Source: an uncultured Atopobium sp. (GTDB lineage: Bacteria; Actinomycetota; Coriobacteriia; Coriobacteriales; Atopobiaceae). Taken from it: 64,000 nucleotides of DNA. Made by a program: the position numbers and the translations under genes. This document shows positions 32,500 to 53,480 of this stretch, piece by piece. The stretch spans positions 10,527-74,526 of the forward strand of contig CALLVW010000030.1 of NCBI GenBank assembly GCA_938015835.1, written 5' to 3'. The notes under the pieces are model-generated. The model was given only the letters and a program-made list of their open reading frames with translations. It ran no database searches and was not told the DNA's origin. Within the stretch, counting starts at the first letter, position 1; each line of letters starts with the position of its first letter.

Positions 32500-32590
32500 G
32501 GAGAGCTGACCGAGAGGCCGAAGGTGCTCGCCTGCTAAGCGAGTATGGGCCCCAAGCCCATCTGGGGTTCGAATCCCCAGCTCTCCGCCA
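32500..32590 (+). tRNA. tRNA-Ser (anticodon GCU)
   Basis: Cloverleaf GGAGAGC acceptor, anticodon loop CUGCUAA, long variable arm, TTCGAAT T-loop, encoded CCA. Confidence 0.9.
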
Positions 32591-32598
32591 GAATTTTC

Positions 32599-32630
32599 CG
32601 CTCGTTGCGCCTCTGCAACGAGCTTTTTTC
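32599..32630 (+). terminator. intrinsic terminator after tRNA-Ser
   Basis: GCTCGTTGC-loop-GCAACGAGC hairpin followed by TTTTTT. Confidence 0.7.
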
Positions 32631-32702
32631 TTACCAAGAAGAACTTTTTCTAAGATTAGTCTTGCATTTTTAACTGGAAAATGGCATTCTATCTACTTGC
32701 AC

Positions 32703-32779
32703 GCGGCGTTACCTCAGCTGGATAGAGGACCTGACTACGAATCAGGGCGTCATAGGTTCGAATCCTATACGCCGCACCA
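32703..32779 (+). tRNA. tRNA-Arg (anticodon ACG)
   Basis: GCGGCGU acceptor, D-arm CCUCAGCUGGAUAGAGG, anticodon loop CUACGAA, T-loop TTCGAAT, CCA encoded. Confidence 0.9.
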
Positions 32780-32788
32780 CTTGAACTT

Positions 32789-32816
32789 AGGAGCTCCTTC
32801 GGGAGCTCTTTTTTAT
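32789..32816 (+). terminator. intrinsic terminator after tRNA-Arg
   Basis: GGAGCTCC-TTCG-GGAGCTC hairpin followed by TTTTTTATT. Confidence 0.75.
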
Positions 32817-33136
32817 TATCTACCTGGTCTTAAGGCTACTTCACCAGCAGAGTTAGCATATAAATAACGGTAAGAAATGCCAGCTTCATCAAGCTCATCC
32901 ATTACCTCAGCCATACATGTTTCTGCCATGATGACCTCAAGATATTCTTGTGGACTTAAGTCTTTTAAACCCACCCTGCCTTGGTCTGAAATCCATTTTC
33001 TTAAAGCTGCAAGTTGCTCTGGTGCTATATGGATTTCTGAATAAAACTCCTTGTGACCAAATCCAATTTCTGCTGCACTACCCTGCACAAACTGCCGTAC
33101 TACGATATCTTTCTGTACCTCTACCAAACCTTTCAT
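32816..33136 (-). CDS. hypothetical small acidic protein (106 aa) with a LexA/Cheo-type SOS box in its promoter
   Basis: ORF with an AAAGAGG RBS and no recognised domain. The perfect palindrome TTTATAGAACATATGTTCTATAAA lies 40-65 bp upstream of its start. Confidence 0.5.
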   Translation of the reverse strand: MKGLVEVQKDIVVRQFVQGSAAEIGFGHKEFYSEIHIAPEQLAALRKWISDQGRVGLKDLSPQEYLEVIMAETCMAEVMDELDEAGISYRYLYANSAGEVALRPGR

Positions 33137-33177
33137 AGCTACCTCTTTCTTCTCTTGCTAGCCACAAGTATAGCTGA

Positions 33178-33201
33178 TTTATAGAACATATGTTCTATAA
33201 A
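33178..33201. promoter_or_regulatory. 24-bp perfect palindrome containing GAAC-N4-GTTC (Cheo/SOS box-like operator)
   Basis: TTTATAGAACATATGTTCTATAAA. The core GAACATATGTTC matches the Gram-positive LexA consensus CGAACRNRYGTTCG and the actinobacterial TCGAAC-N4-GTTCGA. Confidence 0.6.
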
Positions 33202-33278
33202 TCACTAAAAGAAATGGTCTCCACAATTCTGTAGAAGACCATTTCAAGAATTGAATCAGTTTTGATTAAAAAGAGAAA

Positions 33279-34562
33279 CTATTCTGGGCGAATAACCTCG
33301 ATGCCACCCATGTAAGGACGGAGCGCCTCAGGCACGGTAACGGAGCCATCTGCGTTCTGATAATTCTCCATAATTGCAGCCATGGTACGGCCAACTGCCA
33401 GACCGGAGCCGTTAAGCGTGTGAACTAGACGGGTGCCCTTGAACTCTGCTGGATCCTTATAGCGGATATTTGCACGACGAGCCTGGAAATCCCAGCAGTT
33501 AGAGCAAGAAGAAATCTCCTTGTATGCGTTATAGCTTGGGAGCCAAACTTCAATGTCATAACACTTGCATGCAGAGAAGCCAATGTCACCAGTGCAGAGA
33601 GTAACCACGTGATAAGGAAGACCCAGAAGCTGGAGGATCTTCTCGGCTTCCTGAACCATGGACTCAAGCTGATTCATGGAGTCTTCAGGCTTTGCAAACT
33701 TGACCATCTCTACCTTGTCAAACTGGTGGACGCGGATGATGCCACGGGTGTCTCGACCAGCTGAACCTGCCTCCTCGCGGAAGCATGGGGTGAATGCGGT
33801 ATAGAGCAGAGGGAGCTGAGATGCGTCCAGAATCTCGTCACGATGGATGTTTGTGAGCTGGACCTCAGCAGTTGGAATGAGGTAGAGGTCAGGCTGTACG
33901 TGATAGAGATCTTCTTCAAACTTAGGGAGCTGACCAGTGCCAAACAGAGAGTCCTGATTTGTGATAACTGGTGGCCACCACTCTTTGAAGCCTGCCTGGT
34001 TATGTGTATCAATCATGAAGTTGATAAGCGCACGCTCCATGCGAGCGCCCATGCCGCCAAGAAGATAGAAGCGAGTTCCTGCAAGCTTTACGCCACGGTC
34101 AAAATCAATCATGCCCAGCTCGGGTCCAAGATCCCAGTGCGCCTTTGGCTCAAAATCAAACTGAGTTGGCTCTCCCCACTTGCGAACCTCAGGGTTATCG
34201 GAATCATCCTTGCCATAAGGAACGGATGCGTCAGGAATGTTTGGAATAGCCGCAACAAGGGCGGTGAGCTCTTCCTCAACCTCTCCGCGGCGCTGATCAA
34301 GCTCTGCGATACGGTCTTTATTAGCTGCTACCTGCTCTTTAGCTGCCTCAGCCTCTTCCTTCTTGCCCTCACGCATGAGAAGGCCAATCTGCTTAGAAAC
34401 AGCGTTGCGCTCTGCCTGAAGAGACTCAACCTCAGCAATTACGCTTCTGCGCTCCTCATCAAGCTCAAAGAATTTCTCGCGATCCCAATGAGCATTTTGC
34501 CTGGACTCGCAAGACTTATCTACGAGGTCAGGATTCTCGCGCACAAATTTGATATCAAGCAT
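33279..34562 (-). CDS. serS: seryl-tRNA synthetase
   Basis: 427 aa with an N-terminal coiled-coil arm and class II core motifs. Starts MLDIKFVRENPDLV. Confidence 0.9.
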   Translation of the reverse strand: MLDIKFVRENPDLVDKSCESRQNAHWDREKFFELDEERRSVIAEVESLQAERNAVSKQIGLLMREGKKEEAEAAKEQVAANKDRIAELDQRRGEVEEELTALVAAIPNIPDASVPYGKDDSDNPEVRKWGEPTQFDFEPKAHWDLGPELGMIDFDRGVKLAGTRFYLLGGMGARMERALINFMIDTHNQAGFKEWWPPVITNQDSLFGTGQLPKFEEDLYHVQPDLYLIPTAEVQLTNIHRDEILDASQLPLLYTAFTPCFREEAGSAGRDTRGIIRVHQFDKVEMVKFAKPEDSMNQLESMVQEAEKILQLLGLPYHVVTLCTGDIGFSACKCYDIEVWLPSYNAYKEISSCSNCWDFQARRANIRYKDPAEFKGTRLVHTLNGSGLAVGRTMAAIMENYQNADGSVTVPEALRPYMGGIEVIRPE

Positions 34563-34654
34563 GCAGCTTCTCCTTGAATCAACACTTTTTGGCAGTGCAT
34601 TTTTTCTTATAGCCTACCAAGTATATACTTGTATTTGGATTCTTAACCCTTCAC

Positions 34655-34891
34655 ATGTTCTGGAGCTGGATTATGGACGCAATTAACTCTTTTTTTGGTT
34701 GGCTTTTTGGCGATAAGACCGGCGTGTTGTTCCTCGTACTTGGTGGAATTTTGCTCTTCTTGGTCATTTCTTTTGTGTTGGAGCGCAAAACCAAAAAGAT
34801 GTATTTCAACCACAAAAAGACCGAAGACGACTGGGATCTCTTTGGAGAAGACGAAGAAGGCTGGTCTGACTTTGATGCAGACAACAAATAA
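34655..34891 (+). CDS. hypothetical small membrane protein with acidic C-terminus
   Basis: 78 aa, two hydrophobic segments, followed by a strong terminator. Confidence 0.4.
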   Translation: MFWSWIMDAINSFFGWLFGDKTGVLFLVLGGILLFLVISFVLERKTKKMYFNHKKTEDDWDLFGEDEEGWSDFDADNK

Positions 34892-34895
34892 GTAA

Positions 34896-34927
34896 CAAAA
34901 AAAGCCCCGTAAAGGGGCTTTTTAAAT
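34896..34927. terminator. bidirectional intrinsic terminator
   Basis: AAAGCCCC-GTAA-AGGGGCTTT hairpin flanked by an A-run and a T-run. Serves the small ORF (plus) and tRNA-Leu (minus). Confidence 0.75.
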
Positions 34928-34932
34928 GCAAA

Positions 34933-35019
34933 TGGTGCGGGCGAAGGGACTTGAACCCCCATGAACTTGCGTTCATACGGACCTGAACCGTACGCGTCTG
35001 CCAATTCCGCCACACCCGC
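34933..35019 (-). tRNA. tRNA-Leu (anticodon CAG)
   Basis: Reverse complement GCGGGUG...anticodon loop UUCAGGU...long variable arm...GGTTCAAGTCC...CGCCCGCACCA. Confidence 0.9.
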
Positions 35020-35152: not shown

Positions 35153-36949
35153 GTGAGTGACTCGCGGTCACAGACCACGCAGACTACATATCTACATTCA
35201 CCTTCTGCTCAGCAGGCATCATCTGCGGCTGAGCCAGAAATTTTGCTGGACCGATATCGCGTTCTTGCTCGCAGAGGTAACGGAGGCTTTGGCACCGTTT
35301 GTACCTGCTGGGATACTCGTTTGCAGAGACGCGTAGCCATTAAACGCATGCCACTGTTGGGAGCTTCCGAGACTCCCGGCGTGCTTGCTTCAACTGTTGA
35401 CGAGGCTCTTTCTGAGGCAAGAACTGCCTGCTTATTGGCTCATCCCAACATTGTGACCGTCCATGACTTTGAGATTGAAGGCGATTACGCCTATCTGGTC
35501 ATGGAGTTTGTTGATGGCCTTAATTTATCGGAGCTCTTGGCTCGCGTTGAGGGTGGCTACCTCACCTATGCCGAAGCAGCTCACATGGTGTCTTCACTTG
35601 CAAAGGCGCTTCACTATGCTCATGAAAACGGCGTACTCCATCTGGACATCAAGCCAACAAATATCATGATTGACCGCCAGGGTACGGTAAAACTTGCCGA
35701 CTTTGGTATGGCAACACTTGCTTCAGCTGCTGGTTATGGCGGCGCTCGTGGTGGTACGGTAGGCTACATGCCTCCCGAGCAGGTTGAAGGCATGCTTGTT
35801 GACGAGCGCGCTGATATTTTCTCGCTTGCTGTTGTTCTGAGGCAGGCTCTAACGGGCGTCAATGTATTTGCGGGCAGAACGGCTAAAGAATCCCTTGATC
35901 ACATCTACAAGGGCCCAAAAATTCCTCTGCTCAAACAAGATCCCGAGGTTCCCTTTGCTGTAGACGCCGCCTTGACGCAGGCACTTTCCCCTGAGCCGTC
36001 AATGAGACAAGGAAGCGTCTTGGAGTTTGCACAAGAAATTGTGACTCCTCTTGGCAGCGAAAAGCAGGGCGAGAAAAGCCTCAAATCCCTGGTGGAACAG
36101 TCAGAAGAAGAGGAAACCGAGACCTGGGATGTCAAGCATCTTCCGCTCTCAATCCGCTTCCCCTGGCTGCCCTCGGCTACCGTGCGTGGCGTATCAGCCC
36201 TGGTCGTCGGTATTCTTCTCGCCCAGTTATTCCAGCTTATTGCTCCAGAATCGTTCACGTTTATTGTGGTGGGTTCTCTTGTAGGAGCTGCGGCAGCTGC
36301 TCTTTGGACTCCGTTGGGTTCTGCGCTTGTCATTGCATGCGCGGTATATGCCCTGGCAAGTATTAGCCCTACCAGCACTTCATTCCCATTTGCAACGCTT
36401 GTAACCTTAGTAAGCGTTATATGGTGGGCCTTTGCAGGAAGGGTCTCAAAATTCAGCAGCATCAACTGCTTATTAGGAGCTTTATTACCTGCTCCTGTTT
36501 CAGCACCAGCGCTTGTCTCCGCCACCATGCATCCACTACCTGCGGTTTTAACAGGAGCCTTTAGCTATCTTTTTGGGACACTGTTTGCAAGAGGCATATC
36601 TTTAGGCTTTGCGGCAACGCCTCTTGCTTATGACTACACCTCGCTGACCTCAGGACTTCCTTTTTGGATTCGCTTTGGGGCATGCTCCCTATCTGCTCTT
36701 TTAGGCTCGCTTATGAGCCAGAAAAGACGCCGTGGGTGGATGGTTTTTGGACAAATTATTTGTGCTGCATTGCTTTCAAGTGGCTTTATATGGGCAGCTT
36801 GGATGGAGAATCCCAATTTTTGGGTAGTTGAAAGTATAGTTTCGGTACTAATTACGGTATTCTTATGTGTACTTGTATGTATTGCAATTGTCCTGATAGG
36901 TCCACTTGACGCGGATCAGGAAGGCGAGGAATTAGATGAGCTTTCTTAG
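35153..36949 (+). CDS. Ser/Thr protein kinase with polytopic (about 7 TM) C-terminal membrane domain
   Basis: Hanks kinase motifs (GNGGFGTV, VAIKRM, HLDIKPTN, DFG, PPE) in the N-terminal 280 aa. The C-terminal half has multiple hydrophobic helices and no PASTA. GTG start with an AGGAGG RBS. Confidence 0.85.
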   Translation: MSDSRSQTTQTTYLHSPSAQQASSAAEPEILLDRYRVLARRGNGGFGTVCTCWDTRLQRRVAIKRMPLLGASETPGVLASTVDEALSEARTACLLAHPNIVTVHDFEIEGDYAYLVMEFVDGLNLSELLARVEGGYLTYAEAAHMVSSLAKALHYAHENGVLHLDIKPTNIMIDRQGTVKLADFGMATLASAAGYGGARGGTVGYMPPEQVEGMLVDERADIFSLAVVLRQALTGVNVFAGRTAKESLDHIYKGPKIPLLKQDPEVPFAVDAALTQALSPEPSMRQGSVLEFAQEIVTPLGSEKQGEKSLKSLVEQSEEEETETWDVKHLPLSIRFPWLPSATVRGVSALVVGILLAQLFQLIAPESFTFIVVGSLVGAAAAALWTPLGSALVIACAVYALASISPTSTSFPFATLVTLVSVIWWAFAGRVSKFSSINCLLGALLPAPVSAPALVSATMHPLPAVLTGAFSYLFGTLFARGISLGFAATPLAYDYTSLTSGLPFWIRFGACSLSALLGSLMSQKRRRGWMVFGQIICAALLSSGFIWAAWMENPNFWVVESIVSVLITVFLCVLVCIAIVLIGPLDADQEGEELDELS

Positions 36950-38060: not shown

Positions 38061-38473
38061 TGATTGATTTGATTCTCTTTGCAGGACGTGTTCTGCTTGT
38101 TGTCCTGTTGTACATCTTCCTGTTCTCGGTCATGCGCACGGGCATTGGTCTTGTCCGCGGCCAGCGCAAAGACGGAGCTATTTGGTCCGTTGATGTCGAG
38201 AAGGGCGTCAAGTCCTTACGTGGTCTTCACGTAGACATCTTGGGTCCTGTTGTTATTGGACGTTCTCCTTCGTCTGACATTGTGATTGACGAACCTTACG
38301 TTTCTGCTTCACACGCCCGCTTTACTATCCAGGGCCCTGCTCTGGTACTTGAAGACCTTGGATCCACAAACGGAACCATGGTTAATGGTCACATCATCGA
38401 GCAGCCTGTTACCCTTCGCGACACAGACGAAGTCCAGGTCGGCGATGTGATTATGCGTGTTGGACGTCGATAA
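38060..38473 (+). CDS. fhaB: FHA-domain protein FhaB/FipA-like (TM helix plus FHA)
   Basis: 137 aa with an N-terminal TM helix and an FHA domain (VIGRSPSSDIVIDEPYVSASHARF...STNGT). Confidence 0.8.
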   Translation: MIDLILFAGRVLLVVLLYIFLFSVMRTGIGLVRGQRKDGAIWSVDVEKGVKSLRGLHVDILGPVVIGRSPSSDIVIDEPYVSASHARFTIQGPALVLEDLGSTNGTMVNGHIIEQPVTLRDTDEVQVGDVIMRVGRR

Positions 38474-38480
38474 GAGGCTC

Positions 38481-39740
38481 ATGGTTTCTTCTGATACAAC
38501 ACATATTTCTGATACACCTACACAAGAGCCCGTGAGTGCTCCTGGTCGTTGTGAGCTGCCACTTGATGGTCGCTGTGACGCAGAGGCAGTTTCTGGCTCT
38601 AACACCTTTATTTCTTGGGGCGCCCGCTCTGACGTGGGATTAGTTCGCGAGCATAACGAGGACTCGTTCCTTTTGCGCACTCCCCTTTTTGCCATCTGCG
38701 ATGGTATGGGAGGTCACGCCGCCGGTGAGGTAGCAAGCTCCATTGCTGTTAAGGTTATTGCCGAACAGGCACCAAGTACCGCAGACGATGTCCGTCTTGG
38801 CGCTGCAATTGAGGCTGCTAACCAGGAAGTTATTGATGCTCCTGCAAAGGGTATTGGCAAACCTGGCATGGGCTCCACTGCCTCTGCTGTCCTCATTGAG
38901 GGCAATCAGATGGCCGTTGCTCATGTTGGTGACTCTCGCATTTACCTGCTCCATCATGGCACGCTGGTCCGCATTACTCATGACCACAGCTATGTTGAGG
39001 AGCTCATTGATTCTGGTCAGATTACCGCTGATGAGGCTCGCACGCACCCTTCTCGCTCGGTAGTTACGCGAGCTCTTGGCTCTGATCCAGACATGTATGC
39101 AGATCATTTCTCGCTTGAAGTATCTGATGGTGACCGCATCATCTTGTGCTCCGATGGTCTCTCTGGCATGGTGCCCGACGATGAGATTGAGTCCATTGCT
39201 GTCTCTAACGTCACGCCACAAAAGGCTGCCGATAACCTTGTTTCCGCAGCTCTTACCTATGGCGGCTCAGACAACATTACCGTTATTGTCATTGACGTCT
39301 TGGACGACGGCATAGCCGATCAAACCAGGAAACACCTTACTCGTGGCGTTATTGCCACGTTTGTCTCGTTCCTTGCGCTCTTTGCAGCCACTGTTGCCGT
39401 GTTCTTCCTGTTTGTAAGCAGCGAGTGGTACTTAGGAATTAACGGAACTACCGTTGGCGTTTATCGAGGTATTCCTACAACAATTGCCGGCATAAACATG
39501 TCTTCGCTTGTTGAAACTACGTCGATTGAAATAAAAGATTTGCCTGACGCAGTTCAAGACTCTCTTGCAGACGGAATTCGCGTTAAGAACGAGGACGAAG
39601 CACATAGCACCGTCGAGAATTACCGCAAACAAATTGACGACGCCAACAACAAAGCAGTCAAAAAGAAAGAAGACGTTCAGTCTGGCGGAACACCCACAAC
39701 AGAAACAACAACGTCAACAACAAGTTCGGGAGGTGAGTAG
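38481..39740 (+). CDS. pstP: PP2C-family Ser/Thr phosphatase (PstP-like) with C-terminal TM anchor
   Basis: PP2C motifs [17 protein letters not shown] and DG..G. TM helix near residue 305 and a Thr-rich tail. The ATG at 38481 has an AAGAGG RBS. Confidence 0.85.
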
Positions 39741-39742
39741 GA

Positions 39743-42607
39743 ATGGAAAAAGCAGGTGGACTAAGGCGTAATACAGAGCTCTTCTTACTATTTGTAGGAG
39801 CAATCCCTGTATTTCTGCTGTACGCCATGTACATGATTACTGCTCGCTCAACGCTCAGCCTTGAGACAATGGCCGTTCCTATTGGTCTCTTTGCAGCATT
39901 TACCGTGGCTCACATTGCTATTAGGTTCCTTGCTCCCGCAGCAGACCCCGCCATTCTCCCCATTGTGTTTGTGCTCTCGGGAATTGGCATCACCATGGTC
40001 ACCAGACTTGCGCCAAATCTTGCAGTCAACCAAACGATTTGGCTCTTTATCTCTGTTGTTGTCATGATTGTGGTACTAGCGGTCATTAGAAATCTTGACG
40101 CGTTAGCACGCTACAAATACTCCATTGGTATTCTCGGCGTCATACTGCTTCTTTTGCCAATTGTTATTGGCCAGGACCGCTATGGCGCAAAGCTCTGGAT
40201 TTCTTTTGGCACATTCACCTTCCAGCCTGGCGAAATTGCAAAGATTGCCATTACGCTCTTCCTGGCGTTTTATCTAGCACTGAATCGAGAAGCCCTATCG
40301 GTCTCCATGCGTTCTTTTGGACCTTTCCGCATTCCTCGCTTTAAAATGCTGCTTCCTCTGTTTGTCATGTGGGGCATCAGCCTGATTGTTGTTATTTTTG
40401 AACGCGACCTTGGTAGCGCTCTGCTCTTCTTCGTGTTCTTTGTCATCATGCTCTATGTAGCAACAGGTCGCGCAAGCTACGTTTTTGTCAGTATTGCGCT
40501 CTTGGCCATTGGCGGCGTGGTGCTTTATCACTTCTTTGGTCACGTTCAGACTCGTGTCAACATTTGGCTTAACCCCTTCAAAGACCCCGCTGGAGACGGC
40601 TACCAAATTGTCCAGTCCCTCTATTCCATCGCAGATGGAGGCCTTGCTGGCACCGGAATTGATAAGGGAATGCCTACGCTTATCCCTATTGTTGAGTCTG
40701 ACTTTATTTTCTCGGCCATTGCTGAGGAGCTGGGACTCTTTGGCGGAGCGGCAATTATTACCCTGTTCCTGCTCCTTACTGTGCGCGGTCTTGCAACAGC
40801 TGCTCGTGCAAAGTCCGATTCATCTGCTTTTGCAGCTGCTGGTCTTACCAGTGTTTTGGCGTTCCAAACCTTCCTCATTGTTGCAGGCGTTACTAAGCTC
40901 ATGCCTCTAACCGGCGTTACCCTGCCCTTTATGAGTCAGGGCGGTAGCTCTCTTCTTTCCAGCTTTATCATTGTTGCCCTGCTGCTCAGGGCAGGTGACG
41001 AGGGAACTGGTCGCGAAACAGAGCTTGAGCCAAGCAAGAAAACGCTTGACTCCCAGAGGCTCGAAATTTCTTCTGGTGGAGCTCACGCCTCTTCCGTTTT
41101 GCATGGCAGCCACATCCGTGGAGGCTTTGGTCTGCAGTCTGAGGAATCTGGTGTTCTGGGACGTGTTGCTCTCGGAAAACGTCTGACCAATTTGGTTACC
41201 GTATTTACCCTCTTCTTCACCGTTCTTCTCGGCAACTTGACCTTCTTGATGGTCATTGACGCACCTAGACTTCAGGCGCTCCCTACCAACAACCACACTA
41301 TTGCTAAGAGCGCATATGTTCAGCGCGGCGCCATCATGACTTCTGACGGCGTCACCCTGGCAGAGAGTGTCAAGCAAGACGACGGCACCTACGTGCGTAA
41401 CTATCCACACGACGGTATGGCTTCTCACACCGTTGGCTACATCTCTACCCAGTATGGAACTGCAGGTATCGAGTCCTCCATGAACGAGACGCTCACCGGA
41501 CACGCAGATCATTCCGACTGGAGAAGCGCTCTGTACTCGATGGCAGGTGTTAATACCGCTGGTTCAAGCGTTGTTTTAACCATCAATTCCCAGATGCAGG
41601 CTGTAGCAGAAGCTGCACTCCAGGGATATTCCGGCTCCATTGTTGTTATGGATCCAGCAACCGGAGCCGTGCTTGCAAAGGCTTCAAGCCCTTCATACAC
41701 CCACGCTGATCTGGGCACTGTTATCGAGTCCGGTACCGGCAGTCAACTGGTTGACAGAACTACCCAGGCGCTCTACTCCCCTGGTTCGTCGTTTAAGACC
41801 ATTACGCTTTCTGCTGGAATTGACACACATACCACCACGCTGGACACCACCTATTCAGCTCCAGGAACTATGGAGCTTGGCGGTGGAACCATCCACAACT
41901 ACGCCAACGAGGACATGGGCACTATTCCTCTGCGTGAGGCATTTGCTCGCTCTTCTAACACGGCGTTGGCGCAGCTTGGAGTAGCACTTGGCGCAGACAA
42001 CCTGGTCAGCTATGCACGTGCCTTTGGTTATGGCACCGCACTTGGTCAGGACTTCTCCACTACACCATCGTTGATGCCAAATCCTGCCGAGATGACCACC
42101 TGGGAGCTTGGCTGGGCATCCTGCGGTCTTCCTGTTGGAGAGCATGCAAGCCCTGCAGGTCCTCAGACCACCGTCATGCAAAACGCTGTTGTTGCGGCTG
42201 CAATTGCTAACGGCGGCGTGGTCATGAACCCTTACATCGTTGATCGCGTTCTCTCGCCAGAGGGAGCTGTTGTTTCTACAACGTCACCAAAATCGCTTGG
42301 ACAGGCAGTGTCTGCGGATACCGCCGCGCAGGTCCGAGAGGCAATGTTGGGCGTTGTTGAATCCGGCACTGGTATGGGAGCGCGCGTTCCGGGTGTCAAG
42401 ATTGCAGGTAAAACAGGTACGGCAGACGTCGAGAACGGTAACTTTAACTCGTTCTTCATCGGTTTTGCGCCTTACGACCACCCAACTCTTGTTGTTTCTG
42501 TTGTCATCGAAGGCAACGGCGAGAACGTTTTAGGTTACGGTGCTCAAGTTGGCGGACGTGTTCTTGCGCAGTGCCTGAACATCCAGGCTTTGGGAGCTGC
42601 TTCGTAG
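39743..42607 (+). CDS. fused SEDS glycosyltransferase (RodA/FtsW) and class B penicillin-binding protein transpeptidase
   Basis: Residues 1-430 form a complete FtsW/RodA polytopic domain ending in PFMSQGGSS. Residues 470-954 form a PBP2-like N-terminal domain plus transpeptidase with SSFK (SxxK), SSN and KTGT motifs. Single uninterrupted 954-aa ORF. Confidence 0.8.
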
Positions 42608-42707: not shown

Positions 42708-44633
42708 ATGCCAGGTAGAATGCTCAGTGGGCGTTACCAGGTTCAAGACAAAATTGGTACCGGTGGAATGGCCACCGTTTACCGCGGACAGGACCAGGTT
42801 CTTGGTCGTACTGTTGCCATCAAGATGATGCTGCCGCAGTACGCAAACGATCCTTCCTTTGCTGCCCGCTTCAAGCAGGAGGCACAAGCCGCAGCGGCGC
42901 TCTCCAGTCCTTATATTGTCTCGATATACGACTGGGGTAAGGACGGCGAGTCCTACTACATTGTCATGGAGTATCTGCGCGGTACAGACCTTAAGAGTGG
43001 CATCCGCAAACATGGAGCCCTTGATTCCCGTAAGGTCGCTCAGATTGGCTCTCAGATTGCTCAGGCACTCTCTGTAGCACATCGTCACGACATCATTCAC
43101 CGTGACATCAAACCACAGAACATCATGGTCCAGCCAGATGGCAACATCAAGGTCATGGACTTTGGCATTGCTCGTGCAAAGAACAGCAGTCTAACCACCG
43201 ATAACTCTGTTCTTGGCACCGCTCATTACGTTTCTCCAGAGCAGAGTACGGGCAAGCCTTTGGGACCAACCACCGATATCTATTCCCTAGGCATTGTCAT
43301 GTACGAGGCTGCAACTGGCCGCGTTCCCTTTGTTGGTGACGACGCTATCAGCGTTGCTATGAAGCAGGTCAACGAGGCTCCTCAGCCACCATCGCTGATC
43401 AACCCCAACGTTGACCCCGCACTCGAGGCAATCATTCTTCGCTGTATGGAGAAAAACCCAGCTGACCGCTATCAGAGTGCTGACGAGCTTGCTCGTGCGC
43501 TGCGCGATTTTATTGCTGGCCGCGCTACTATTCCAAGCAACACCACCGTGAGCCCCCGCATTGTGACACCACCTCAGCCAACTTCCAGGTTGGATCGTCG
43601 CGGCATTGACGGCTCCAACACCTACATCACGCGCGGTGGCGACACTGGTCGCTTGAACCGCGTCCATTCTCGCGAAGAGGCTGATGAGCTTGACAGGCGC
43701 GAGAATAAACGTCACAAGCGCAACGTTATTCTCGGCGTTTTAGGCGCTTTGGTTGTCCTGGCTCTTGCCGGCTTTGCTATTGCACAGATGCTCGGCAACT
43801 CCGCCCAGCAGTATCTGGTTCCACAGTTTGTTGGTCAGACAAAAGACCAGGCTACTCAGGCACTAAATGCTTCTGATAGCCACTTTAAGCTGGGAACTGT
43901 TACAGAAAGCTACAGTGATTCTGCTCCTGAAGGCCAGGTCATTGATCAGACACCAAGCGCTAACAAACAGGCTCCTGAAGGAACCGCGGTTAACCTTGTC
44001 ATTTCTAAGGGCGCTAAACCTGCTGCTGCAGTTAAGGTGCCTGATCTTACCAACAAGAGTCCATCAGAGGCTGAGTCTGCTCTTGCTGCTGTTGGCCTCA
44101 AAGCAAGAAATGGTGACTCGGTTGAGTCGGATGACGTAACCGTTGGTTATGTTGCAACACAGGAACCAGCCGCAGGTAGCGATGCTAAAGCTGGCGACAC
44201 CATCACCTATCACCTGTCTACTGGCAAGGGTAAGGCAGATGTTCCAGACGTCACCGAGATGACTGCCGAGCGTGCGTCCGATGTTTTGAAAGATGCAGGC
44301 TTCAAGGTAGATACTCAGAAACAGCCTTCGTCGAGCGTTCCTGAGGGCCGTGTCATCTCCCAGTCTCCAGCTAACGGCAAGGCAGATAAGGGTTCCACGG
44401 TAACCATCGTTGTTTCTTCCGGTGCTCAGAGTGGCTCTGTTCCAAACGTTGTTGGCAAGGACTTTGAAACCGCTCAGTCCACGCTGGAAAACGCGGGCTT
44501 CCAGGTCAACACGGTTTGGGTCTACGATGACAACGTTGCAACCGGAAACGTAGTTGGCCAAACACCTTCAAGTGCTGCAGCTGGCGCTACTATCACCATC
44601 CGCGTCTCCAGTGGACCTCGTCCATCAGCGTAA
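42708..44633 (+). CDS. pknB: Ser/Thr protein kinase PknB-type with extracellular PASTA repeats
   Basis: Kinase motifs GTGGMATVY, HRDIKPQN, DFGIA, SPEQ. A TM helix at about residues 338-360 and four PASTA-like repeats at the C-terminus. Confidence 0.9.
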   Translation: MPGRMLSGRYQVQDKIGTGGMATVYRGQDQVLGRTVAIKMMLPQYANDPSFAARFKQEAQAAAALSSPYIVSIYDWGKDGESYYIVMEYLRGTDLKSGIRKHGALDSRKVAQIGSQIAQALSVAHRHDIIHRDIKPQNIMVQPDGNIKVMDFGIARAKNSSLTTDNSVLGTAHYVSPEQSTGKPLGPTTDIYSLGIVMYEAATGRVPFVGDDAISVAMKQVNEAPQPPSLINPNVDPALEAIILRCMEKNPADRYQSADELARALRDFIAGRATIPSNTTVSPRIVTPPQPTSRLDRRGIDGSNTYITRGGDTGRLNRVHSREEADELDRRENKRHKRNVILGVLGALVVLALAGFAIAQMLGNSAQQYLVPQFVGQTKDQATQALNASDSHFKLGTVTESYSDSAPEGQVIDQTPSANKQAPEGTAVNLVISKGAKPAAAVKVPDLTNKSPSEAESALAAVGLKARNGDSVESDDVTVGYVATQEPAAGSDAKAGDTITYHLSTGKGKADVPDVTEMTAERASDVLKDAGFKVDTQKQPSSSVPEGRVISQSPANGKADKGSTVTIVVSSGAQSGSVPNVVGKDFETAQSTLENAGFQVNTVWVYDDNVATGNVVGQTPSSAAAGATITIRVSSGPRPSA

Positions 44634-44691
44634 TCGCTGCGGCGTGCAGTGTGCGGCTCCAAGCGCACAGTGAGCACAACTAGTACGTTCA

Positions 44692-44726
44692 AGCCCTGCA
44701 ACCGTGTTTGGTTGCAGGGCTTTTTG
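44692..44726 (+). terminator. intrinsic terminator after pknB
   Basis: GCCCTGCAACC-loop-GGTTGCAGGGC hairpin followed by TTTTTG. Confidence 0.75.
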
Positions 44727-45135: not shown

Positions 45136-45211
45136 TGGTGCCCCCGGGCCGATTCGAACGGCCGACACCCGCTTTAGGAGAGCGGTGCTCTATCCCCTGA
45201 GCTACGAAGGC
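45136..45211 (-). tRNA. tRNA-Arg (anticodon CCU)
   Basis: Reverse complement GCCUUCG...GCUCAGGGGAUAGAGC...anticodon loop CUCCUAA...GGTTCGAAT...CGGGGGCACCA. Confidence 0.85.
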
Positions 45212-51837: not shown

Positions 51838-51913
51838 TGGTGGGCCGTTAGGGGTTCGAACCCTAGACCTTGGGATTAAAAGTCCCCTGCTCTACCAACT
51901 GAGCTAACGGCCC
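51838..51913 (-). tRNA. tRNA-Lys (anticodon UUU)
   Basis: Reverse complement GGGCCGUUAGCUCAGUUGGUAGAGC...anticodon loop CUUUUAA...GGTTCGAAC...ACGGCCCACCA. Confidence 0.9.
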
Positions 51914-53405: not shown

Positions 53406-53480
53406 TGGAGCGGGCAACGGGATTCGAACCCGCGGATGATGGCTTGGGAAGCCATTGCCTTACCACTTGGCGATACCCGC
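53406..53480 (-). tRNA. tRNA-Gly (anticodon CCC)
   Basis: Reverse complement GCGGGUAUCGCCAAGUGGUAAGGC...anticodon loop UUCCCAA...GGTTCGAAT...UGCCCGCUCCA. Confidence 0.85.

Follow-up and report, generated by a model that had tools for sequence, protein, structure and literature searches.

A single-gene SEDS-class B penicillin-binding protein fusion in the kinase/phosphatase locus of an uncultured Atopobium sp.

Pairs of a SEDS glycosyltransferase and a penicillin-binding protein of class B (bPBP) are core synthases of peptidoglycan and major targets for antibiotics, and proteins in which the two partners are encoded by a single open reading frame (ORF) have been described before. Natural single-ORF SEDS-PBP fusions are acknowledged by Nygaard 2023 (PMC10449877), where synthetic SEDS-PBP fusions were found to complement the deletion of both genes, and where an E. 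coli RodA-PBP2 fusion joined by an 8-aa linker (TSGSGSGS) had glycosyltransferase activity, bound bocillin and yielded a 3.0 Å structure by cryo-electron microscopy (cryo-EM). In its passages on such chimeras, an InterPro survey published in 2025 (PMC12516126) counts 117 proteins with both domains, termed 'bifunctional class B' synthases. Its Fig. 5B shows a 931 aa protein of Senegalimassilia faecalis (Coriobacteriales) in which an FtsW/RodA/SpoVE domain is followed by a PBP-A dimerisation domain and a transpeptidase domain; the same passages report that this fusion is flanked by Ser/Thr kinase and phosphatase genes, and that S. faecalis also has separate FtsW/FtsI and RodA/MrdA pairs. Here we analyse a gene of this kind in a 64,000-nucleotide stretch of DNA from an uncultured Atopobium sp. 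(assembly GCA_938015835.1, contig CALLVW010000030.1, positions 10,527 to 74,526), which we call the window and whose first letter is position 1 in all coordinates below.

The gene in question is very probably the Lancefieldella/Atopobium parvula orthologue of actinobacterial rodA and pbpA, permanently fused in Coriobacteriia to encode a tethered SEDS-bPBP synthase. The natural SEDS-bPBP fusion is already known, being annotated in public records, represented by a crystallised ectodomain and present in the published literature, so the novelty implied by the original prediction for this locus falls away. The literature searched yielded no study, by genetics or by biochemistry, of a natural fusion at full length, and a search on the function of Coriobacteriia SEDS and PBP proteins returned nothing relevant; an article on bacteria that lack class A PBPs (PMC8406291) mentions neither fusions nor Coriobacteriia.

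The stretch 39743..42607 on the + strand is one ORF of 954 codons, which starts with ATG and contains no internal stop. Its ATG lies 2 nt past the stop codon of the PstP gene, and a Shine-Dalgarno sequence, GGGAGGTGA, ends about 7 nt 5' of it. A Pfam profile search with the 954-aa protein returned three strong and separate matches (SEDS, PBP_dimer_2 and Transpeptidase), which together with the stop-free ORF confirms the original prediction that a SEDS domain and a bPBP share one frame of this length. The motifs quoted in that prediction were all recovered: PFMSQGGSS at residues 395-403, SSFK at S682-K685, SSN at S737-N739 and KTGT at K890-T893. When both halves were compared by phmmer with all six-frame ORFs of at least 120 aa, no second SEDS protein or bPBP was found in the window. 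The parts of the gene listed below were delimited with Pfam, with hydropathy and with an AlphaFold2 (AF2) model, which was built from a 32-sequence alignment and has a mean predicted local distance difference test score (pLDDT) of 80.5 and a predicted template modelling score (pTM) of 0.57.

39743..42607, + strand: RodA-PbpA (SEDS-bPBP) fusion ORF, from the ORF itself and Pfam, with identical or near-identical ORFs in independent genomes
39743..39952, + strand: N-terminal extension, residues 1-70, with transmembrane (TM) helices at 7-33 and 44-63, from AF2, hydropathy and the start of the Pfam match
39953..40993, + strand: SEDS glycosyltransferase core, residues 71-417, PF01098, with ten canonical TM helices
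40994..41200, + strand: cytoplasmic linker, residues about 418-486, from AF2 pLDDT and the orthologue alignment
41201..41257, + strand: predicted bPBP membrane anchor, TM helix of residues 487-505, with a hydropathy of 2.27 and lying within the confident AF2 helix 471-505
41324..41572, + strand: PbpA-type N-terminal (pedestal-like) domain, residues 528-610, PF21922 PBP_dimer_2, 81 bits
41633..42568, + strand: D,D-transpeptidase domain, residues 631-942, PF00905, 184 bits

The same architecture recurs widely in public sequence data. The exact protein represents a 90%-identity cluster of 1475 member sequences on 156 contigs, which carries the name 'FtsW/RodA/SpoVE family cell cycle protein [Atopobium sp.]'. 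All of the best 120 homologues (120/120) span 941-993 aa and carry all three Pfam domains, and the mean column identity within the fusion family is 76%. When 1.84 billion cluster representatives were searched exhaustively with phmmer, 96 of the best 150 matches were proteins of 800 aa or more, most of them matched in two stretches, and the fused SEDS-bPBP proteins fall into many distinct 50%-identity clusters.

At the level of genomes, we scanned one genome per species and obtained 78 loci. With the stop-to-stop ORFs of each derived afresh, the SEDS half and the bPBP half had their best matches in one frame in 63 of the 78 loci. These 63 span Atopobiaceae, Coriobacteriaceae and Eggerthellaceae, and their halves are 44-100% identical to those of the window protein. 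Three cultured isolates, Atopobium sp. BS2 and ICM42b and L. parvula DNF00906, have the ORF intact, with 94-100% identity in both halves, and it is found at the same 94-100% identity in more than 15 metagenome-assembled genomes (MAGs) from unrelated projects. This assigns the window to L. parvula or to a species very near to it. Every complete Coriobacteriia locus sampled is fused except two, L062, where a run of N (shown as XXXX) interrupts the sequence, and L063, whose frameshift falls within the SEDS domain and away from the junction; both belong to 'cleanbin' MAGs and look like cases of assembly damage. Alignment to related genomes, as the original prediction had proposed, thus places the two halves in one frame in every complete and undamaged Coriobacteriia locus sampled, and among these the fusion is lineage-wide.

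Typical Coriobacteriia fusion contigs were also encountered under unexpected names. Eight loci (L030, L032, L033, L036, L038, L050, L062 and L063) all lie in '..._cleanbin_...' assemblies, MAGs that are GTDB representatives named as Alistipes, Alloprevotella, Melainabacteria, Agathobacter, Christensenellaceae, Akkermansia or Bacteroidaceae. L032, L033 and L050, and probably others, show the FhaA-FhaB-PstP-fusion-PknB neighbourhood, and the Coriobacteriia fusion contigs in these MAGs look mis-binned.

In the SEDS half, the profile PF01098 (FTSW_RODA_SPOVE) matches residues 71-417 with 255 bits, against a cut-off of 26.4, and covers profile positions 13-350 of 356. Solved SEDS chains, namely P. 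aeruginosa FtsW, E. coli RodA (8TJ3) and T. thermophilus RodA (6BAR/6PL5), align to residues 75-417. The AF2 model places the ten helices of the core at residues 71-89, 91-114, 125-142, 162-180, 200-220, 223-241, 244-264, 319-355, 359-383 and 401-419, and leaves a large loop, residues 265-318, between TM7 and TM8; hydropathy agrees, and the loop has the position of the extracytoplasmic loop. Ahead of the canonical ten, both hydropathy and AF2 find two additional N-terminal TM helices (7-33 and 44-63), in a block whose pLDDT is mostly 83-91 and drops to 66 for residues 31-40. D320, in the sequence 'VESDFIF', aligns with D255 of T. thermophilus RodA and D262 of E. coli RodA, and is the putative catalytic Asp of the SEDS half. 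E164 and K167 sit within FQPGEIAK. We take the Asp at the start of TM8 (T. thermophilus D255, E. coli D262) and the E/K pair of FQPSE-x-x-K to be essential in SEDS proteins. Across 24 divergent fused proteins, aligned down to 28% identity, D320, E164 and K167 do not vary.

By its match to the PbpA-type domain, the bPBP half is of the PbpA subtype of class B PBPs. The SxxK, SxN and KTG motifs of its transpeptidase domain correspond to S682-S-F-K685, S737-S-N739 and K890-T-G892, and in the same alignment of 24 divergent fusions the residues S682, K685, S737, N739, K890 and G892 are at least 90% conserved. The crystallised ectodomain of A. parvulum DSM 20469 shares 97-98% identity with residues 504-954 and has eight PDB entries, 4JBF for the ectodomain alone and 4N1X, 4QJG, 4R0Q, 4R1G, 4R23, 4R3J and 4RA7 for seven complexes. 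The ligands of these seven are penicillin G, penicillin V, cephalothin, cloxacillin, dicloxacillin, cefapirin and nafcillin. We would point out that this beta-lactam evidence consists of PDB entries of a strain variant, whose titles read 'in complex with', a wording that does not imply covalent acylation. The AF2 model superposes on the A. parvulum ectodomain structures with TM-scores of 0.96-0.97.

The title of 4JBF is 'peptidoglycan glycosyltransferase from Atopobium parvulum DSM 20469'. For 4MNR, the homologue from E. lenta at 45% identity, it is 'D,D-transpeptidase domain of peptidoglycan glycosyltransferase from Eggerthella lenta'; since the latter names a transpeptidase domain of a glycosyltransferase, the two-domain nature of the gene had already been recognised. 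The nearest solved bPBP from outside Coriobacteriia is M. tuberculosis PbpA (3UN7/3LO7), at 31-32% identity and a TM-score of about 0.85. A further entry, 4OVD, is a second A. parvulum bPBP that is 25% identical, and its existence means that the fusion is not the sole bPBP of A. parvulum.

Between the two halves lies a linker of about 65 aa that contains 8 Lys+Arg residues. Hydropathy and AF2 concur on twelve membrane helices in the SEDS half, the canonical ten and the two at the N-terminus, and because this number is even, the SEDS C-terminus and the linker would be cytoplasmic, which is the proper side for the N-terminus of a bPBP. Residues 422-469 of the linker are predicted to be disordered (AF2 pLDDT below 50). 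They are followed by the long confident helix 471-505 and then by a well-predicted ectodomain. The N-terminal TM helix of the bPBP, which the original prediction expected to find after the SEDS core, is thus present within that long helix by both hydropathy and AF2, and the SEDS-bPBP junction is, as modelled, topologically sound.

Across Coriobacteriia the linker ranges from 31 to 89 aa, with a variable middle of a few to more than 50 residues between conserved ends. The start, right after TM10 of the SEDS core, has the general form R-x-G-[D/N]-x-[G/A]-T-G (GDEGTG in the 954-aa protein), in which Thr422-Gly423 is invariant in 30/30 Coriobacteriia sequences. The end, a juxtamembrane helix right before the bPBP TM helix, has the form G-x-L-G-R-x-[A/S]-L-G-[K/R]-R-L. 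To our reading these conserved ends have apparently not been examined by anyone before. In the split-gene relatives examined, the linker-end motifs were not found in the RodA tails or the PbpA heads, and their absence there would allow a regulatory role specific to the lineage, such as that of a phospho-site controlled by PknB and PstP. It is a doubtful idea that the fusion was more than the neutral loss of a stop codon and that the linker ends form a Coriobacteriia-specific cytoplasmic phospho-switch or docking site for the co-transcribed PknB, PstP and FHA proteins, one that would steer the engagement and activation of the SEDS half by the bPBP anchor. A phospho-Thr for FHA binding in the conserved stretch 'LQ(T/S)xESGVLGR' was considered and dropped, the residue being Ser in the 954-aa protein and Thr or Ser in its relatives.

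Six loci from deeper Actinomycetota carry two separate genes: L055 (an Actinomycetes MAG), L064 (Gaiellales), L071, L076 and L077 (Thermoleophilia) and L078 (Rubrobacteraceae). In these split-gene loci FhaA, FhaB and PstP lie upstream and PknB downstream, often with an extra kinase further upstream, and the neighbours common to split and fused loci identify the fusion as the positional orthologue of rodA plus pbpA. At two junctions the genes abut in the same frame, as TAG|ATG in L055 (7231-7239) and as TGA|ATG in L064 (7177-7185), so that one substitution in the stop codon would yield a fusion. In the other four split loci the frames of the two genes differ; the genes abut or overlap, and at three of these junctions a GTG overlaps the TGA stop (GTGA). 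Judging from these sequences, the fusion probably dates to the Coriobacteriia stem, and the loss of a single rodA stop codon there is the simplest history and most likely the one that took place. A second group, the Lachnospiraceae/Butyrivibrio-type loci at 28-35% identity, which come from Firmicutes and take in MAGs of other Clostridia, includes both fused (L066, L067, L072-L075) and split (L065, L068-L070) forms, and BLAST found no match to the FhaA, FhaB, PstP or kinase proteins of the window near these genes (L065-L075). The coexistence of fused and split forms in another gene context points to at least one independent fusion.

Three other explanations of the locus were weighed, the first being a sequencing or assembly artefact, in which a single indel or base error erased the rodA stop and the organism truly has two genes; an indel is what the original prediction named as the alternative to a natural fusion. 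Such an error is easily imagined, as some deeper Actinomycetota have in-frame genes split by just one stop, and a single mistake there would mimic a fusion. It would, however, have to have arisen in all three of the cultured isolates and again in the MAGs, more than 15 and of independent origin, all of which have the ORF intact, and among the best 120 homologues none falls outside 941-993 aa. It would also have to recur in every complete Coriobacteriia locus at 44-100% identity and leave behind a linker of 31-89 aa with conserved ends, unlike read-through intergenic DNA, and the public structure and annotation records likewise give one gene. We attach next to no probability to an artefact, the natural fusion is preferred, and the indel hypothesis is refuted by this sequence comparison.

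A fused gene may nonetheless give separate proteins, if the linker is cut by a protease or the bPBP is also started internally, in which case a conventional two-protein complex would result. The disordered residues 422-469, which vary in length and sequence, are typical of a protease-accessible linker, and the size of the protein is here a prediction from the gene. An internal start finds no support: the linker has no in-frame ATG or GTG and only TTG at codons 454 and 484, inspection by eye found no suitably spaced Shine-Dalgarno sequence before either TTG (an SD-like GGTGGAG lies about 17 nt 5' of TTG454), and the orthologues show no conserved Met or Val start ahead of the bPBP TM helix; this candidate was set aside. 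As for cleavage, retention of the fusion throughout the class and the independent Lachnospiraceae fusions suggest that the tether is tolerated or useful, and engineered fusions work uncleaved (PMC10449877). Taken together, separate proteins seem improbable to us. Still less probable is that one half is a degenerate passenger, with either the SEDS or the transpeptidase half active and the other serving as anchor or scaffold. The activity of the SEDS half is a prediction from its sequence, 4OVD shows A. parvulum to possess one bPBP more at the least, and the separate FtsW/FtsI and RodA/MrdA pairs mentioned for S. faecalis in the passages of PMC12516126 cited above represent a redundancy that could permit decay. 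Against this, fusions down to 28-30% identity keep the catalytic and structural residues of either half unchanged or almost so, the mean column identity of the family is 76%, and the transpeptidase domain was crystallised with seven beta-lactams.

Several points weigh against our preferred reading, a permanently tethered RodA-PbpA synthase. The presence of the 954-aa species in cells is a prediction from the gene, and its disordered linker could be cleaved. The pTM of the AF2 model is just 0.57. No glycosyltransferase assay of any natural fusion was found in the literature searched. The SEDS half does not reach the cut-off of either equivalog model in NCBIfam, scoring 210 bits against 337 for RodA (TIGR02210) and 242 bits against 338 for FtsW (TIGR02614), and with both models below cut-off the label 'RodA' rests on synteny with actinobacterial rodA-pbpA.

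If the tethered synthase is the correct reading, the polypeptide would insert with its N-terminus in the cytoplasm, and its twelve TM helices would form the SEDS lipid-II glycosyltransferase and return the C-terminus to the cytoplasm. The mostly disordered linker of about 65 aa would follow the inner face of the membrane, and a thirteenth TM helix would then take the chain outward, placing the PbpA-type pedestal and the transpeptidase domain outside the membrane. As in the complexes that RodA and PBP2, or FtsW and FtsI, form without a covalent bond, the SEDS half would polymerise lipid II into glycan strands and the tethered bPBP half would join these by cross-links, with the fusion fixing a 1:1 stoichiometry and guaranteeing co-localisation. 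The co-transcribed module of PknB (with its PASTA repeats), PstP and FhaA/FhaB would retain control over the fused enzyme. We infer that the full-length protein is uncleaved and active as a glycosyltransferase, and the same reservation applies to its cellular role, in elongation or in septation.

The surroundings of the gene are as follows, all protein-coding genes having been assigned with Pfam.

35153-36949, + strand: Ser/Thr kinase, 5' of fhaA
36936-38060, + strand: FhaA
38060-38473, + strand: FhaB
38457-39740, + strand: PP2C phosphatase PstP
42708-44633, + strand: PknB, with four PASTA repeats
44691-44722: strong terminator-like hairpin 3' of pknB, 14-bp and GC-rich, with a T-run

The Ser/Thr kinase, fhaA, fhaB, pstP, the fusion gene and pknB form an apparent operon. 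The original prediction had placed the gene in a conserved fhaA-fhaB-pstP-rodA-pbpA-pknA-pknB cluster, and the collinear order of FhaA, FhaB, PstP, the fusion and PknB bears this out, except that there is no pknA between the pbpA part and pknB; a second Ser/Thr kinase lies 5' of fhaA.

Some further observations were made on these neighbours. In the kinase at 35153-36949, the kinase domain occupies residues 37-285, and the very hydrophobic C-terminal half (about 330-590) has no Pfam match and resembles a multi-pass membrane domain. Most Coriobacteriia loci have a homologous kinase at this position, as do some Actinomycetota with split genes (L055, L077). Residues 323-389 of PstP, in its extracytoplasmic C-terminal part, match the Pfam family BofC_C (E 2.6e-5; 24.7 bits against a gathering cut-off of 21). 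The window holds six tRNA genes (32500-35019, 45136-45211, 51838-51913 and 53406-53480), and two of them, both on the - strand, flank the kinase-to-PknB operon: tRNA-Leu(cag), 34933-35019, on one side and tRNA-Arg(cct), 45136-45211, on the other.

A natural enzyme with a stable 1:1 ratio of its two halves would be convenient for biochemistry and cryo-EM, and a fusion of this kind is indirect genomic ('Rosetta stone') evidence that both activities act as a unit. The argument is not new and has been put to use: engineered fusions have been built, one of them with reference to natural ones, and the ectodomain is in the PDB, so no new principle emerges. What the present analysis adds is that the fusion is fixed in all sampled Coriobacteriia, inside a PknB/PstP/FHA operon and plausibly through the loss of a single stop codon, that similar fusions arose independently in Lachnospiraceae, and that the natural linker has conserved ends. 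We regard the fusion as useful for its value as a natural reagent and as a neat example in evolution, one that will not surprise specialists.

Among known systems, the closest is the A. parvulum DSM 20469 protein, which is the same protein from another strain, and for which the experimental structures cover the soluble ectodomain only. The S. faecalis chimera (PMC12516126) is like the window fusion in domain order, in bacterial class and in its kinase and phosphatase neighbours; the passages of that paper which deal with it contain no phylogenetic placement of the fusion, no linker analysis and no mention of Atopobiaceae. The same passages give a 947-aa protein of Rhodococcus jostii RHA1, encoded next to mreB, with the SEDS-then-bPBP order in a different context. 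The Lachnospiraceae/Butyrivibrio-type fusions share this order too, at 28-35% identity, in a different context and with split close relatives. Their other contexts, this level of identity and the split close relatives indicate that the R. jostii and Lachnospiraceae-type fusions are independent of the one described here.

M. tuberculosis RodA (Rv0017c) and PbpA (Rv0016c) occupy orthologous gene positions and share PF21922 with the window fusion. They are, however, two genes and two proteins, with pknA between pbpA and pknB, whereas the window has one polypeptide and its second kinase 5' of fhaA. In the engineered fusions, namely E. coli RodA-PBP2 (8TJ3), SpoVE-SpoVD of B. subtilis and FtsW-PBP3 of E. 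coli, the SEDS C-terminus leads through a cytoplasmic linker into the bPBP, as it does in the window fusion; these constructs are functional, and the bPBP TM helix stimulates their glycosyltransferase activity (PMC10449877). The engineered linker is 8 aa long, whereas the natural one measures 31-89 aa and has conserved ends, and the natural protein carries two extra TM helices at its N-terminus.

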